From positions 1 to 27,832 of the IMG/VR virus record IMGVR_UViG_3300017747_004591: DNA of 27,832 bases; one strand, given 5' to 3'. This document shows positions 9,581-27,246 of the stretch, in pieces. Position numbers and translations under genes: made by a program. The number at the start of each line of letters is the position of its first letter. The stretch's first letter is position 1. Source of the DNA: a virus (lineage: Duplodnaviria > Caudoviricetes). Under the pieces are notes generated by a model. The model searched no databases. It was not told the origin of the DNA and saw nothing but the letters and a program-made list of their open reading frames with translations.

Positions 9581-10150
9581 TTATTCTTTCCTTTCTTTTA
9601 AAGATTTGTGTAACGCACTGTGGCAAAATGTGCAAACCCATACTACTTCAAGCGGATTAGAATAGTCCATATGATGTCCTTGTATTGGATATTTTTCTGA
9701 ACCGCAAATACTGCATGCCTTAGGTCTAATCAAATCTCCCCTCCTTACCGCCGCAACATATATTTTGTATGCATCAGCTTTTTTCTGATCGCGTTTTTTG
9801 TTGTATTCCTTTTGCCATAAATTTATTCTTTCTTTCTGCTCTTTTCTTTTCTCTATTTGCGCTTCCCGATTTTTCTTATACCACGCTTTTAAATATTTTT
9901 TTCTTTCTTCTTTTTGTTCCGGATCTCGTTTGTCAAACCACTCTTTTGCCGACCGTATATATTTTTTTCTATTTGCCTTGTAGTATTTCTTTTGTCTATC
10001 CCTTACCCTTGTGATATTTGCATTATAGTATGATCTTCTGTTTTCATTCGTGCATTCCTTGCATATTCTGTGAATCCCACATTTTCTGTCCTTACGGACC
10101 AGAAAACCATCTAGATTCTTCTCTACTCCACACTTTGAACAAGTATTCAT
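9581..10150 (-). CDS. Free-standing HNH/His-Cys-type homing endonuclease-like protein
   Basis: N-terminal CxxC...CxxC zinc finger, Lys/Arg-rich linker, C-terminal RPKACSICG...GHHMDYSNPLEVVWVCTFCH; AT-rich relative to its flanks. Confidence 0.8.
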   Translation of the reverse strand: MNTCSKCGVEKNLDGFLVRKDRKCGIHRICKECTNENRRSYYNANITRVRDRQKKYYKANRKKYIRSAKEWFDKRDPEQKEERKKYLKAWYKKNREAQIEKRKEQKERINLWQKEYNKKRDQKKADAYKIYVAAVRRGDLIRPKACSICGSEKYPIQGHHMDYSNPLEVVWVCTFCHSALHKSLKERKE

Positions 10151-11386: not shown

Positions 11387-11974
11387 TTAGACTATCACAT
11401 CTTCCTTTTCGGAAGCCGTCTCGTTTAGTCGTTCAGCGCGAAACTTATTTCCATGATGATGGTTATAATGGCAATCATTGCAAAGCCAAATAATATCTAA
11501 GTGTTTTGAATAATCTTCGTGATGCGCATGAGGTTTGCAGTTCTTTTGGCATTTCGAGCAAATTTTAGGCCTAATCAATAAACCTTTTTTTATTGCTCTT
11601 CTTGTCGATTGCTGTGCTTCAATTTTTTCAGGATTCTTTTCCCTAAATTCCTTTGAATTATTTTTATGAGCCAGCTTCCCTTTTTGTGTCTGCAAATATT
11701 CCTTCTGCTTTATCTTAAGATATTCTCTTCGCTTTTCAATATTATTTAAATAGTATTGTTTACACCTTTCGTTTAGCATCGGTCTTCGTTCTTTTTGCCA
11801 TTGTAGTCTATAAATTCTAGACTTTTTTAAGGCAGATTCTGATCTTACCGATATTTTTGCGCGTGCCTTACAACAATCTTTACACTTTTGATTTAGTCCA
11901 TCAAAAGCTTTCTTATCTTTACCAAATTCATCAAAAAACTTTTCAACCTTGCAGCCTGTACATACTTTTTTCAT
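11387..11974 (-). CDS. Intron-encoded HNH-type homing endonuclease
   Basis: SD GAGGA before ATG 11974; MKKVCTGCK...KCKDCCK zinc finger; RPKICSKCQ...HAHHEDYSKHLDIIWLCNDCH; C-terminus (RAERLNE...DVIV*) reads through the intron core. Confidence 0.85.
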   Translation of the reverse strand: MKKVCTGCKVEKFFDEFGKDKKAFDGLNQKCKDCCKARAKISVRSESALKKSRIYRLQWQKERRPMLNERCKQYYLNNIEKRREYLKIKQKEYLQTQKGKLAHKNNSKEFREKNPEKIEAQQSTRRAIKKGLLIRPKICSKCQKNCKPHAHHEDYSKHLDIIWLCNDCHYNHHHGNKFRAERLNETASEKEDVIV

Positions 11975-12001
11975 ATAATATCCTCTATTTGGATATATAT
12001 A

Positions 12002-12030
12002 ATGATATATGGTTGCTTGGTTTACTTCAA
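12002..12030 (-). promoter_or_regulatory. Intron-internal promoter for the endonuclease
   Basis: TTGAAG-17 nt-TATCAT just upstream of the SD. Confidence 0.5.
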
Positions 12031-12150
12031 TCATTTCTTCGCCCTTGTTGCCATGACTACGCAGCCTCTGCATAGTTGTAGGTTTCCAAGTCAATTAGAG
12101 TCGGTTTTAAATGCGCTAACGTCTGTAAGTCGTTGGTTTTAAACCACTTA

Positions 12151-18983: not shown

Positions 18984-19052
18984 AATTTATATATAGGATA
19001 TTGTGCGAAATTATGACAAGGGAATATTTTTTTCGTTGGGCGATTATTTTTG

Positions 19053-19081
19053 TTGACACGGCACGTGTGTTGTGGTATATT
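19053..19081 (+). promoter_or_regulatory. Strong sigma70-type promoter, copy 1
   Basis: TTGACA-17-TATATT with TGn extension, followed by GACGCATATTA. Confidence 0.8.
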
Positions 19082-19207
19082 AGACGCATATTAGGACTGG
19101 ATCCCTGGAGCCCTTATCGTAGTAAAAAGGCAGGTTGAGCCATCGAGGTATGACAAGCAAAGTTAGAAGTTAGAATAGACAAACGAAAGGAGAAAAGGAG
19201 CAAGAAA

Positions 19208-19436: not shown

Positions 19437-19646
19437 ATGGAATTGGAAGTTGTTTTAGTGAAATTTGCGGGGAATGTGCGGTATTATCCGGTAAACTCAG
19501 CGGCAAAACATTTACTATTGTTTGCTAAGCAGATGAGTTTTACAGAAAAACAGCTGCTAGACTTGCTGGATGACTTTGAGATTTGCGTTGGGACGGATGA
19601 AAAAGGAAAGAAAATTTATTTAGAAAGGGGAAGTGATTTATCTTGA
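19437..19646 (+). CDS. Hypothetical protein
   Basis: GGGGG SD; 69 aa with VRYYPVNSAAK. Confidence 0.7.
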   Translation: MELEVVLVKFAGNVRYYPVNSAAKHLLLFAKQMSFTEKQLLDLLDDFEICVGTDEKGKKIYLERGSDLS

Positions 19647-19671
19647 CAGGTGTGTTGTGTTATGATATATT
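19643..19671 (+). promoter_or_regulatory. Strong sigma70-type promoter, copy 2
   Basis: TTGACA-17-TATATT with TGn extension, followed by GACGCATATTA. Confidence 0.8.
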
Positions 19672-19787
19672 GGACGCATATTAAAACAGTCTATATTGTG
19701 AGGCTGTTGTAGGGAAAAATGCGGTTTGGCTATCGCTTGGAGACGGGCGAGGCTGGACCTAAAGCTAGACAAAAAAGGAGAAAAGTA

Positions 19788-22876: not shown

Positions 22877-24352
22877 TTAATATCCTCTAGGTTGCCATTC
22901 TTTTGTTTCTTCTTTTTTCACGGCTATGACTTCGTCTGGCCTCATTTTTTCTATGTCTGGAAATTCTATTAAACGTCCCTTATCATATCTATAAATGCAT
23001 TTTCCTAAATAACCTTGCATCCTATTTTTAGCCACTATGATTTCTGTATGATCCGGCAAATTATCGGCATACTGTGCGGGTCTATGCATTAACAAAATGG
23101 TATCGGCATCTTCCTCGATAGATCCTGATTCCCTTAAATCTGTTGTGACTGGTCGCTTGTCCGTTCTCGCTGCAGCACTTCGATTTAGCTGAGCTAGCGT
23201 GACAAATGGGATATTTAGCTCCTTTGCCAAGGTTTGAAGCATCTTGGAAATTTGATCAATCTCCATGTGTTTGTTTTGTAGATTTTTATCCGCTCTTACC
23301 AATGTTAGATAATCTGTCATAATGAAGTTAAGTCCTTGATCCATTATCGCTCTCTTAATTGATCGTTCCATAGATGAAGCGGTTACTCTTGCATGGTTAT
23401 GTAGGTAAATAGGCCATTCTTGTATGTCCCTGCATACTCTATAAATTTCTTGGTATTGCTCCTGACTAGGTTTCCTTCCTTTAACAATGTCATAGGGTAC
23501 ATTAGCTACCGTACTAATAAGTTTATCCCAAATCATTGTTTTACTCATCTCTAGAGAGAAAAACCCCACCTTTATTTTATCGGGATATCTAGCTGTTAGA
23601 TTCATAATAAGATTAATTAAGAATGTGGTTTTTCCTGATGATGATCTTGCCCCTATAATGTTGGTTGTCCCATTTTGAAACCCACCTATGAGCTCATCAA
23701 GTTTCCTATACCCTGTACGGAAGCCATCAAAGACGTCTACTCCCGATGCTACCAGCTCCATATCTTCGTCGAAAACCTCCATAAAGGACTTTCCTTTATT
23801 GTAGTTTTCGCAAATCTCCTTTAGCGAAACAAAATCCTTTCCGCTCTTCACGTCGATTTTATCCAAATTTGTTTTCATGTCCTGAATGAGCAAATGAGGC
23901 TCGTCGACTACATCCAATTGCTTCGCTGTAGATACAAGCATCTCATAGGCTTTTGAACGAAATCCATTGCTCTTTAGTCTATCTAAATAATAATTTACAT
24001 CGGCTGATGATCCATTATCATAAATAGCAAAAATCTCTGGCATTGGTATATCAATACCGCTGACTTTTAGATATTTTCCAATGGCCTCACAAACGCCTTC
24101 CAACTTATCGCCTTTGTAAGAGTCGTAAAGGGTACGCATAGCCATGAAAATGTGGCGATGCTCGTGGAAAAAAAACTCATTAGGCTCCAAGCTATCAAGC
24201 ATCACGCGCAGGGCATAGGTACCGTTCATCGCGGCGCCTAGAATGTAGGACTCTATCAACTGTTGCTTTTCTTCTTTGTCTTGCATGTCAATTAATCTAC
24301 CTTTTCTGGTTTTGAAACAACCACCACAACACAACTGGTCATTTAAGATCAA
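22877..24352 (-). CDS. dnaB: Replicative DNA helicase (DnaB family)
   Basis: TGYRKLD, Walker A GARSSSGKTT, FFSLEMS, DYLTLV, LAQLNR, DLRESGSIEEDADTILLMHR, VAKNR; start may be 24286. Confidence 0.97.
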   Translation of the reverse strand: MILNDQLCCGGCFKTRKGRLIDMQDKEEKQQLIESYILGAAMNGTYALRVMLDSLEPNEFFFHEHRHIFMAMRTLYDSYKGDKLEGVCEAIGKYLKVSGIDIPMPEIFAIYDNGSSADVNYYLDRLKSNGFRSKAYEMLVSTAKQLDVVDEPHLLIQDMKTNLDKIDVKSGKDFVSLKEICENYNKGKSFMEVFDEDMELVASGVDVFDGFRTGYRKLDELIGGFQNGTTNIIGARSSSGKTTFLINLIMNLTARYPDKIKVGFFSLEMSKTMIWDKLISTVANVPYDIVKGRKPSQEQYQEIYRVCRDIQEWPIYLHNHARVTASSMERSIKRAIMDQGLNFIMTDYLTLVRADKNLQNKHMEIDQISKMLQTLAKELNIPFVTLAQLNRSAAARTDKRPVTTDLRESGSIEEDADTILLMHRPAQYADNLPDHTEIIVAKNRMQGYLGKCIYRYDKGRLIEFPDIEKMRPDEVIAVKKEETKEWQPRGY

Positions 24353-25092
24353 TCTTTTTTCTCTTCTTTATCTATCTGCTTGATCTTGTTGATGTTAGAC
24401 TTAAATAACGCCATGGGACATTCGATTTTTGATGGTTCATTTCTCATGAGATTTTTATTACTATACATTGTTTTTTTAAGAGCTCTAGCGATAATTTCGG
24501 CCTCATTATTGCGTAGCATTAATTTTAACTCCAAGGGGTCGATCCAGGGAAGATTAGGATCTTTGACTATTTTTTCGTACAGCGCCTCCTTTTCGACGTT
24601 CATGTCTTTCTTTAGGGGGGATTTTTTTTCTTTTGGTTTTACCTCGTCTCTCTCTTCCTCATTTTTAGAGAGAGAGGGTTTGGGAGAGAGAGAAGAAGAT
24701 ATATTAAGTTTAGTATGTGGTATAGGTCTGGCAGATTTGCCAGTCGAGCTGGCAGATTTGCCAATCGTAAACATTTCTTGATTTTTGAAGGCATACCAGA
24801 TGGTTTTGTCTAGGGCGAGGTCGTTAAAATTTCCTTTTATCAAGACACCTTGCTCAACTAGGCTGTCGGTAAGCCTCCTCACCTGGTCAGCTGTAAAATA
24901 AATGTAATGGGAAGCTATTTCTTCGCGTGTTTGAAAAGTCCATGTTCGACCCTCATGGAAATTTATGCCTTGATTTATGTTGCTTTGTATCCAAAATTGA
25001 AAATGAGCGATTAGAATGGCTTCAGGCAGTCCATATTTTTGTGCAAATAGGGGGTTGAAAGCGTGGGCGGCGATCTGATTTTTGAGTTCCAT
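24349..25092 (-). CDS. Phage replication initiator protein
   Basis: wHTH-type N-terminus (AQKYGLPEAIL...HEGRTWTFQT...DKTIWY), low-complexity linker holding direct repeats, upstream of DnaB; SD AAGGAG 6 nt before ATG 25092. Confidence 0.8.
   Translation of the reverse strand: MELKNQIAAHAFNPLFAQKYGLPEAILIAHFQFWIQSNINQGINFHEGRTWTFQTREEIASHYIYFTADQVRRLTDSLVEQGVLIKGNFNDLALDKTIWYAFKNQEMFTIGKSASSTGKSARPIPHTKLNISSSLSPKPSLSKNEEERDEVKPKEKKSPLKKDMNVEKEALYEKIVKDPNLPWIDPLELKLMLRNNEAEIIARALKKTMYSNKNLMRNEPSKIECPMALFKSNINKIKQIDKEEKKD
24728..24763. repeat. Two iteron-like repeats, candidate replication origin
   Basis: CTGGCAGATTTGCCA at 24728 and 24749 (21-bp period), each a TGGCA-N4-TGCCA palindrome, next to a purine tract and AT-rich DNA. 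Confidence 0.65.
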
Positions 25093-25114
25093 ATAGGTCT
25101 CCTTGAGATTTTTC

Positions 25115-25175
25115 TTGCAAAACCAAGGAGGAAACAGTATGATCACTTGCGTAATTTTCTGGAATATCGTATGAT
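25115..25175 (+). promoter_or_regulatory. Two tandem antisense promoters
   Basis: TTGCAA(25115)-17-TATGAT(25138) and TTGCGT(25147)-17-TATGAT(25170). Confidence 0.7.
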
Positions 25176-25273
25176 TGCGATATTGTTATTCAGCAAGTGA
25201 TCAAGGCTCGTATCCTTGGTTAGTTAAGCCCTAGTACTTTAAGCATCCAGCTATTACTGGATGCTTTTTTTTT
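25150..25273 (+). ncRNA. Putative counter-transcribed antisense RNA to the initiator leader (about 90-125 nt)
   Basis: Bounded by plus-strand promoters and a plus-strand terminator, with no credible ORF between them. Confidence 0.6.
25241..25273 (+). terminator. Rho-independent terminator
   Basis: AAGCATCCAG-CTATTA-CTGGATGCTT followed by a T run. Confidence 0.85.
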
Positions 25274-25305
25274 CGCTCGGGCCGATTGGCGAAATCTCAC
25301 GCATT

Positions 25306-25773
25306 CTAAATCTGCTTAGCACTTTTTGTCACAGCATTTTTCGAATTTTTGGTTTTTTTGGGTTTTACATCCTGAAAAATGAGATTTTTTGGATTCCGAA
25401 TAGGTTCTTTTTTTTTCTCTACAATTTTTTTATTTTTTTTAATTCCATGTTCTTCGCAGTATTTTTTTACATATTCTGATGCTTCATTTTTCAAATACTT
25501 CCATAAAAATTCATTTATTTTTTGATCTATAAAAGACAATAGCGGATATCTGATTCTTTCGCCGTTTTCTTCACCAAATTGCTCATTCATGCGCACATTA
25601 TACCGCGTACCATTTTTAAAAACGCGCAGCCCTCGCAGGTCAAAACGCAATCCATCTATATCTAGATAAATATGTAGTGTACCCAAAAAGTGTTGGTTTT
25701 TGGTTGTTCCTGGGTAAAATTGCTGGATCTCTATAAGTATATTTCTATTTTTCTGTGATTGCTCATTTAACAT
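25306..25773 (-). CDS. Second SpoVG-like protein with basic C-terminal tail
   Basis: FLGTLHIYL...DLRGLRVFKNGTRYNVRM...GERIRYPLLSF. Confidence 0.5.
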   Translation of the reverse strand: MLNEQSQKNRNILIEIQQFYPGTTKNQHFLGTLHIYLDIDGLRFDLRGLRVFKNGTRYNVRMNEQFGEENGERIRYPLLSFIDQKINEFLWKYLKNEASEYVKKYCEEHGIKKNKKIVEKKKEPIRNPKNLIFQDVKPKKTKNSKNAVTKSAKQI

Positions 25774-26408
25774 TTGACTATTCCTTTTTTTAAACCATCT
25801 TCCATAATCTTGCTCGTTCCGCTTGCAGCAGCATTAGCAAGGCTTCTTTTGTACAAGTGTACATAGTTATAAAGCGTGGCCCTACTTATGTGCAGCGTCC
25901 GGCAGATTTCATCGATGGGGATGCTCTTGTCGGCGTGCATTTTTCCGGCTGTCAGTACTCTAGGGTCTTTTGGCGACATCGGCTTTCGGCCGCCCATTTT
26001 TCCGCGGGCTCGTGCCATCGCGATTCCGGCGTTTACTCTCTCGCGGGTTAGAGACGCTTCGAATTGCGCCAAGGCAGAAAAAAGGTGAAAGATCAATTCG
26101 CCTGTTGCTGTCGTCGTATCAAAGGAACCATCGGAGATAGATTTGAAGCCGATGCCCTTGGCCTTGAGGTCTTCGACTAGCTGCACAAGGTGTTTCATTG
26201 TGCGGCCTAGCCTATCCAGTCGCCATACAACCAATACGTCGCCAGTTTCAAGCCTCGCAAGGGCCTGGTCTAGCCCTGGCCGGCTAGTTTTTACCCCTGT
26301 TGCGGTGTCGGTGTAAATTTCCTCGCACCCTTCTTTTTTCAATCCATCTATCTGCATTTCGAGATTTTGGTATTCCGTGCTGATTCTTGCGTATCCTACT
26401 TTTTTCAT
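25767..26408 (-). CDS. Small serine recombinase (resolvase/invertase family)
   Basis: GYARIST (catalytic Ser), RPGL, GDVLVVWRLDRLGR, GGRKP arm, C-terminal HTH ISRATLYNY; start 26408 with AGAGGA SD. Confidence 0.95.
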   Translation of the reverse strand: MKKVGYARISTEYQNLEMQIDGLKKEGCEEIYTDTATGVKTSRPGLDQALARLETGDVLVVWRLDRLGRTMKHLVQLVEDLKAKGIGFKSISDGSFDTTTATGELIFHLFSALAQFEASLTRERVNAGIAMARARGKMGGRKPMSPKDPRVLTAGKMHADKSIPIDEICRTLHISRATLYNYVHLYKRSLANAAASGTSKIMEDGLKKGIVKC

Positions 26409-26632
26409 TTTTTCCTCTTGTCTAGGGTTTATAGTAATTTCTTTGTTAAATAGTTTATCAAATCTTGGCATACTAATCTAGATAAACCGGTAGTGGAGGA
26501 GGTTTTTTTTCGAATGAATTTATTTATAGGCAGCCATACAGGTGTTTGTTTGGATGGTTTTTTTAAAGTAATTGCTGTGTTTCTAGGTAGGTGACAGTTT
26601 CCCCGAATTAGCATTCGCAAGCGTCACTTTTT

Positions 26633-26838: not shown

Positions 26839-27246
26839 TTAATTTGAACTAGAGGTGGGCGAAGGTGTTGCGTTGCGCATCTCTTGCAAGATTGAAACAA
26901 TTTTTTCCAATTTTTCGGAAGTAATAGGGTCTTCGCGAAAGTCATGGTTGACTCTTTGCCTTAATTCCTCAAATTTTGCGTTATCTCCTATAGGGTCATC
27001 TTTCAGTTTGCTTTGCAAAATTTCAGCGAGTCTTTGGTTTGCCCTTATTCTAGACTCGACTTGCTGTTCTGTAAGTCTAAAGCGCTCGAACGTGTGGTTG
27101 CTGTTTACATAATATTCTTGCGGTTTAGCCGATCGGGATCTCCAAAAGCAGCAACAGCCACCGGAATTGGTATCTTCAGCAAAAGTAAACTCTTGGTGTA
27201 AGTGTGGTTCTAGTGATAGCGTAGGCTGTAAAGTCGGAGCAACCAT
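26839..27246 (-). CDS. Hypothetical protein with CCC motif
   Basis: 135 aa, AAGGA SD, GGCCCFWRSR. Confidence 0.75.
   Translation of the reverse strand: MVAPTLQPTLSLEPHLHQEFTFAEDTNSGGCCCFWRSRSAKPQEYYVNSNHTFERFRLTEQQVESRIRANQRLAEILQSKLKDDPIGDNAKFEELRQRVNHDFREDPITSEKLEKIVSILQEMRNATPSPTSSSN

Follow-up and report, generated by a model that had tools for sequence, protein, structure and literature searches.

A putative antisense-RNA-controlled translational switch on the replication initiator of a tailed phage

How is the output of a phage replication initiator controlled when the gene is preceded by a non-coding leader that can fold in two ways? The question is raised by a virus record of 27,832 nt, estimated to be 74% complete and carrying terminase, portal and major head (capsid) genes, which we analysed over its full length and refer to as the window. 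A first-pass annotation of this DNA had proposed that the leader of the initiator mRNA alternates between a fold with an open and a fold with a closed ribosome binding site, and that a short antisense RNA flips it into the closed one. This logic is supported by folding of the leader and by divergent relatives, in which an antisense promoter, an antisense terminator and a three-way pairing specific to each locus recur. We therefore consider an antisense-RNA-controlled translational switch on the phage initiator the probable reading of the locus, with a probability of roughly 0.7 on the basis of sequence comparison and modelling.

The initiator gene occupies 25092-24349 on the minus strand and encodes 247 aa, starting with the ATG at 25092, to which the N-termini of 44 homologues align. 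The protein matches phrog_11233 (replication initiation protein) with an E-value of 1.9e-25, while a profile search yielded zero Pfam matches, and its relatives in cultured phages carry the annotation 'replication initiation O-like'. The stop codon of this gene, which the proposed switch would regulate, is overlapped by the gene of a DnaB-like helicase in the same operon (22877..24352, minus strand; PF03796, E 3.8e-67). Two 19-nt palindromic direct repeats at 24728-24767, within the initiator gene, are iteron-like and may mark the origin, by analogy with lambda O, for which the replication origin is described as located within the O gene (PMC3985674). Homologues of the initiator carry 2-4 copies of a peptide motif that matches these repeats, which suggests an internal origin with a variable number of iterons.

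Several other features of the window were recorded. An orphan protein of 135 aa with a GGCCC motif and 4 homologues is encoded at 26839-27246 on the minus strand; searches gave neither a family nor a fold for it. Two near-identical 48-nt repeats on the plus strand (19046-19093 and 19636-19683), each with a strong TTGACA-17-TATATT promoter and a shared downstream start sequence, are likely to be early promoters. Between 9581 and 13055 on the minus strand, two phrog_2340 endonuclease ORFs (9581-10150 and 11387-12094) lie on either side of the head genes. The second of them shares 38 nt with the major head ORF, the match of which ends at profile position 296 of 356; the major head gene may be interrupted by a mobile intron.

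The Shine-Dalgarno sequence (SD), its complement, the 9-bp partner, the hairpin arms and the promoter boxes on which the proposal had been built can all be read in the window at the positions claimed for them. The initiator SD lies at 25105-25099 on the minus strand. Upstream of it, an anti-SD arm (25119..25132, minus strand) alternates between two partners: it can bind the SD through 25130-25124 (OFF), or pair over 9 bp, through 25129-25121, with an anti-anti-SD or pre-emptor at 25213-25221 on the same strand (ON). A long inner hairpin at 25140..25203 of the minus strand, with 11-bp arms at 25140-25150 and 25193-25203 and inner arms at 25163 and 25178, would draw the anti-SD and the anti-anti-SD together.

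Tandem promoters had been described on the plus strand, and both TTGC-17-TATGAT arrangements are indeed present. The upstream one, P1 (25115..25143; TTGCAA-17-TATGAT, TATGAT at 25138), the spacer of which is the complement of the anti-SD, passes a consensus scan with 9/12, but the weaker P2 (25147..25175; TTGCGT-17-TATGAT, TATGAT at 25170) reaches 8/12 and stays below the threshold. The scan also recovered the terminator attributed to this transcript, a 10-pair stem at 25241-25266 followed by a T run (25241..25273, plus strand). From promoter and terminator we infer an antisense RNA at 25150..25273 on the plus strand, ~124 nt long when started at P1 and 92 nt when started at P2 (start 25182). 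The predicted RNA spans the anti-anti-SD but neither the anti-SD nor the SD, and ends at least 45 nt upstream of the latter. The region scanned contains 3 promoter-like matches versus 4.9 +/- 2.4 in shuffles, i.e. no excess, and the numbers of promoters and terminators over the 2.5-kb region by itself are close to those of shuffles. As the matches are at shuffle level, the promoter evidence from the single window is weak and its support rests on the relatives. A candidate promoter for the initiator mRNA, overlooked in the first pass, lies at 25332-25303 on the minus strand (GTGACA-18-TAGAAT, 10/12) and would place the mRNA start near 25296, upstream of the entire switch. Both the mRNA leader and the antisense RNA are presumably made.

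The leader DNA is found with 0 differences in contigs of three DNA runs (X1 24818-25498, X2 24980-25157, X3 25061-25275), one of which may be the source sample; given this identity, it is not an assembly artefact. An exact-DNA pattern search with the leader in viral contigs gave 0 matches, and comparison with 168 loci returned zero alignable relatives.

The folding of the minus-strand leader (25275-25085) was analysed in silico with a model that excludes pseudoknots. The leader folds with z = -6.27 and 0/200 shuffles are equally stable. Ensembles forced into the ON and OFF states are near-equal in energy (-68.5 and -68.7 kcal/mol), and in folds of the growing transcript the ON helix has already formed in full by the time the SD is synthesized. 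Opening of the SD in the free leader costs 2.4-3.2 kcal/mol across four choices of ends. For the same number of end choices, the cost is 8.0-8.7 kcal/mol when the span of the P1 RNA is blocked and 6.8-8.3 kcal/mol when that of the P2 RNA is blocked, and blocking of the 9-nt anti-anti-SD alone brings it to 6.6-8.0 kcal/mol. Blocking of the terminator hairpin alone leaves the cost unchanged (1.9-3.2 kcal/mol), blocking of the anti-SD makes the SD more open (1.4-2.6 kcal/mol), and blocking of the long inner hairpin raises the cost from 2.4-3.2 to 4.6-5.3 kcal/mol. The flip proposed in the first pass is thus reproduced by folding and cofolding with and without the antisense, as either RNA (P1 or P2) gives the SD-closed hairpin. 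The probability of the ON helix in the free leader ranges from 0.27 to 0.99 depending on the ends chosen, and the model depicts the free window leader as poised, not clearly ON. An mRNA that begins at 25210 folds OFF, with an SD:anti-SD probability of 0.9. Outside its own locus, the longest complementarity of the predicted antisense RNA to other phage mRNAs is 10 nt, which corresponds to the chance level, and an action on multiple targets among these mRNAs was rejected for this reason.

These features would combine into a simple two-step mechanism. As the mRNA leader emerges, it would fold first with the 9-nt upstream segment holding the anti-SD, so that the ribosome site is open. Binding of the predicted 92-124-nt counter-transcript to this upstream segment would then free the anti-SD and thereby close the ribosome site. 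Repression would act on translation and not on termination. In a dose-dependent manner, the antisense RNA would set the output of the initiator and of the coupled DnaB and thus provide negative feedback on genome copy number; it would probably also block a superinfecting identical phage. The initiator/DnaB pair may accordingly be subject to copy-number control of the plasmid style. The same switch logic is described as demonstrated for pSK41 RNAI (PMC5703833).

Does the arrangement recur in related phages? Five scans with the initiator gave at least 170 loci, two of the scans contributing the best 80 of 252 and the best 80 of 202. A start was found in 168/170 loci, and clustering at 85% identity resulted in 109 clusters. 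In 55 of these the initiator is preceded by a non-coding leader of at least 120 nt with an SD (leadered relatives, which include the window as L089); in 31 it is coupled to an upstream gene, and 23 were set aside owing to a short flank, an intermediate gap or no SD. As controls we used 57 leaders belonging to other genes at the same loci. An antisense promoter was defined as TTG-16/18-TAnnnT with a -35 box that precedes the initiator start by 15-75 nt; this interval (-75..-15) and the geometry of the block used in folding were picked after examples had been seen, and the histogram of promoter positions peaks within the interval.

So defined, an antisense promoter is present in 27/55 leadered relatives compared with 10/57 controls (shuffles 3.8 +/- 1.6, maximum 8 of 100) and in 2/31 coupled initiators. 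The equivalent of the antisense terminator is found in 40/55 leadered relatives and 4/57 controls (shuffles 3.1), whereas terminators in the sense direction are not enriched (9/55 versus 10/57). A sense promoter just upstream of the terminator shows modest enrichment (17/39 relatives, shuffles 9.2 +/- 2.4), and the SD:anti-SD duplex, with a mean of -8.8 kcal/mol, is more stable than in controls (-6.5) and local shuffles (-6.8 +/- 0.24). Promoter and terminator occur together in 21/55 relatives and predict RNAs of 63-269 nt (median 109), which lie well upstream of the SD and not over it, the same geometry as in the window; in the other 34/55, the promoter, the terminator or both were undetected. 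The initiators of these 21 loci are 39-57% identical to that of the window, and in a quick, unfinished tree of the 109 initiators, based on few columns, the loci that combine the two elements are dispersed (20 changes versus 19 when shuffled). The upstream ORF of the window ends at 25306 and the antisense RNA at 25273; among relatives, the antisense unit overlaps the upstream ORF by at least 15 nt in 2/37.

The predicted switching behaviour is likewise found in the relatives. With the RNA span blocked in the 21 loci, the mean cost of SD opening rises from 3.6 to 7.35 kcal/mol: 15 of them close by at least 1 kcal/mol, 4 barely shift and 2 open. A fixed block at -180..-65 changes the cost by +3.5 kcal/mol in leadered relatives (at least +2 in 33/55) versus -0.5 in controls (6/57; p 7e-11). 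In 15 loci with 4 replicates each, shuffling of the covered part closes the free state (from 3.2 to 6.5-7.5 kcal/mol), and shuffling of the uncovered part opens the bound state (from 7.95 to 4.0-4.3 kcal/mol). The pairings are specific to the locus. The SD region pairs with its own anti-SD window at -8.8 and with those of other loci at -6.9 (controls -6.5 versus -6.2); for the anti-SD window and the upstream region the corresponding values are -23.5 and -15.9 (controls -16.5 versus -15.3), and the own upstream region is the best partner of the anti-SD window in 23/55 loci versus 2/57 controls. In the minimum-energy fold of the free leader, the anti-SD arm has its partner within the RNA span by at least 5 nt in 13/21 loci, marginally in 2 and not at all in 6. 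Pair counting was limited to the alignable pair L032/L139, the alignments of L074/L164 and L028/L117/L119 being too poor. All 14 counted pairs are kept in this pair, 3 of them with compensatory changes, a result that 58/500 shuffles reach, so that the changes point to conserved pairing in a suggestive manner only. Among distant initiator relatives it is the layout that is conserved, without sequence likeness.

Some relatives are organized differently. In the coupled relatives L073, L100, L103 and L108 (4/29), an antisense promoter and terminator precede the upstream small gene, as if this gene had been inserted between switch and initiator. A general rule that the switch has moved to the upstream gene in coupled relatives was rejected, with 4/29 cases only and a mean effect of +0.2 kcal/mol. 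Seven loci (L018, L132, L136, L006, L051, L097, L170) have tandem repeats in the leader, in the 260 nt that precede the initiator, often repeated units of SD plus start codon that create strings of tiny ORFs; these may be another tuning device or scars of duplication. A further group (L024, L031, L033, L041-L059) is without an SD and has a strong hairpin and a T run directly before the start codon, possibly a different form of control.

Could the same observations arise without an antisense-controlled switch? The antisense unit might work chiefly through colliding promoters, or through duplex formation that exposes the initiator mRNA to double-strand-triggered decay, as in lambda pO/OOP or the P1 lytic replicon, with the folds secondary. 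Its position matches that of lambda pO-oop just upstream of O, the leader is flanked by convergent sense and antisense promoter-like sites, and pO activity is described as lowering pR-driven transcription (PMC3985674). However, such a mode of action leaves unexplained why the three-way pairing is locus-specific and why the switch effect needs both the covered and the uncovered part, and the rarity of overlap with the upstream ORF (just 2/37 relatives by at least 15 nt) is unlike oop/cII. We regard it as an unlikely main mechanism; the switch effect may be reinforced by promoter collision or duplex decay. Still less probable is a switch operating in cis only, in which the mRNA start, processing of the long hairpin, a protein or temperature sets the state of the leader and the antisense RNA is incidental. 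The isoenergetic ON and OFF folds would agree with this, as would the OFF fold of an mRNA from 25210 and the 34/55 leadered relatives without a detectable promoter, terminator or both. Against it stand the strand specificity of the terminator (40/55 antisense versus 9 sense), the strong enrichment of the positioned antisense promoter (27/55) and the location of the anti-SD partner inside the predicted RNA span in 13/21 loci. Antisense-induced transcription attenuation in the style of pT181, pIP501 or repABC, with the SD hairpin as terminator, would share the pre-emptor logic described for pT181 (PMC5703833) and repABC (PMC3155836). We consider it very improbable, as the SD helix is not followed by a U-tract (the 9 nt behind it contain 3 T in the window and no more than 4 in 20/21 loci) and sense terminators are as frequent in controls as in leadered relatives. 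Rho-dependent polarity that follows the block in translation is possible.

The plus strand itself invites another reading. Here the anti-SD reads as a perfect SD (25125-25131), behind which lies an 11-codon hydrophobic ORF (25139..25174) that was overlooked in the first pass, together with an overlapping 9-codon ORF within the long hairpin ahead of the terminator. With an anti-SD on both sides, this could resemble a type I toxin-antitoxin-like module. Antisense mini-ORFs with SD and start are, however, not enriched in relatives (21/55 versus 23/57 controls), a hydrophobic antisense ORF of 15-60 aa occurs in 1/55, all three DNA runs confirm the stop that follows codon 11, and the SD sits within P1. 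The toxin-antitoxin reading is thus largely refuted and hardly credible, and we judge the 11-codon ORF to be a by-product outside the system, since it is not conserved and its SD, being inside P1, would be absent from the P1 transcript. Chance complementarity in an AT-rich spacer next to an ordinary terminator would be compatible with a 2.5-kb region that is near shuffle level for promoters as well as terminators, but not with the z-score of the leader or with the enrichment of all parts in relatives over control leaders and shuffles. At the family level it is refuted, and we assign it next to no weight.

What an antisense-controlled initiator would mean for the phage depends on its lifestyle. 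Gene content was surveyed in 24 leadered virus records, 16 of which are at least 90% complete. Of these 16, 1 encodes a tyrosine integrase, 3 a serine resolvase, and 0 an S24 repressor domain or a ParA-type ATPase. With ParA absent from 16/16 near-complete relatives, a low-copy plasmid state is unsupported. In the window record (74% complete), integrase and ParA were not found. A serine resolvase/invertase gene, also present in 4/24 relatives, lies two genes upstream of the initiator (25767-26471, minus strand) and could resolve multimers of a plasmid form. Scans of prokaryote genomes gave only 3 distant relatives of the initiator among the matches listed. The gene content fits either a lytic phage that times its replication or a multicopy plasmid prophage without partition genes, and mycobacteriophage-derived replicons without parABS are described as better kept at higher copy number (PMC7157519). 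Host searches with the portal, the resolvase, DnaB and a small unknown protein returned no informative named host, and a suspected likeness between the small protein and proteins of environmental Chlamydiae found no confirmation. Rather speculatively, an extensive group of uncultured phages, 35-41 kb in size, which have P22-like portals and for the most part no integrase, ParA or cleavable CI, might live as multicopy plasmid prophages, the lambdoid lytic initiator doubling as replicon. The fast-evolving antisense RNA would then be both a copy-number meter and a sequence-specific immunity, with each lineage forming its own incompatibility group; we hold this picture to be doubtful.

In plasmids such as pSK41, control of an initiator by an antisense RNA through sequestration of the SD is established. 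In the literature that we searched, no such control was found described for a lambdoid-type phage initiator. If real, the switch would give phages without integrase, partition genes and a classical repressor a means to limit replication and to persist, and it would hint at how other phages may use the slot of lambda's puzzling pO/OOP. Dozens of naturally occurring RNA switches are predicted across the family, mutually orthogonal and built on a single architecture from unrelated sequences; they are testable in E. coli reporters without phage culture. Alignment-based RNA screens would miss this switch family because its letters are not conserved. The RNA had not been recognized as a described family in the first pass, and Rfam gave 0 gathering-level matches in the whole window, and chance-level matches only for 24900-25500 of the window and 12 relative loci.

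How does the proposed switch compare with known systems? In lambda, the self-terminating antisense RNA OOP is described with its promoter at the start of an initiator gene that has internal iterons; in these accounts OOP overlaps and targets cII and leaves the O-P mRNA unaltered (PMC3985674, PMC3349717, PMC12197685). That this similarly placed RNA does not act on O mRNA (PMC3985674) counts against our reading. Our locus shares with lambda an antisense promoter placed where the initiator gene begins and a terminator belonging to the RNA itself. Here, however, the RNA lies in the non-coding leader, where it covers the initiator's own anti-anti-SD, and an overlap of the cII kind is absent in the window. 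A phage initiator under antisense control, RepL of the P1 lytic replicon, was reportedly described by Heinrich et al. in 1995 (cited in PMC9948254). The P1 antisense RNA lies within kilA and acts at the transcriptional level. To our knowledge no SD refolding switch has been assigned to that replicon. The two phage precedents thus work otherwise or on other targets.

Among plasmids, R1, ColIb-P9 and pT181 had been named as precedents in the first pass. The closest precedent is pSK41 RNAI, which sequesters the SD without termination. In R1 (CopA/tap) and ColIb-P9 (Inc/repY), a counter-transcript is described as limiting initiator translation, with a leader peptide or an activator pseudoknot required (PMC5415839). 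Sense upstream leader ORFs with an SD are not enriched in our relatives (18/55 versus 19/57 controls) and, at the threshold used, are absent from the window; leader-peptide coupling of the R1/ColIb-P9 type was therefore rejected. For pT181 RNAI/repC and the repABC ctRNA, a pre-emptor is described that occupies the 5' arm of the inhibitory hairpin and gives it up upon antisense binding (PMC5703833, PMC3155836). The upstream pre-emptor is common to these systems and ours, but theirs terminate transcription and the U-tract is missing here. As neither the leader peptides of R1/ColIb-P9 nor the U-tract of pT181 is conserved, pSK41 RNAI is the right precedent. It is described for staphylococcal RepA_N plasmids as a ~83-nt counter-transcript with its leader target ~100 nt upstream of the start (PMC5703833). 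In our model, too, a short RNA (92-124 nt in the window, relatives' median 109) would induce an SD-sequestering stem-loop, and termination and a leader peptide would be as absent from it as they are from pSK41. The differences are that a tailed phage with a phrog_11233 initiator and DnaB takes the place of a RepA_N plasmid, and that here even members of the family do not have a common RNA sequence, while the function of the RNA is predicted. Because initiator, replicon and RNA family differ, the proposed switch would work like pSK41 RNAI without being a member of its family.
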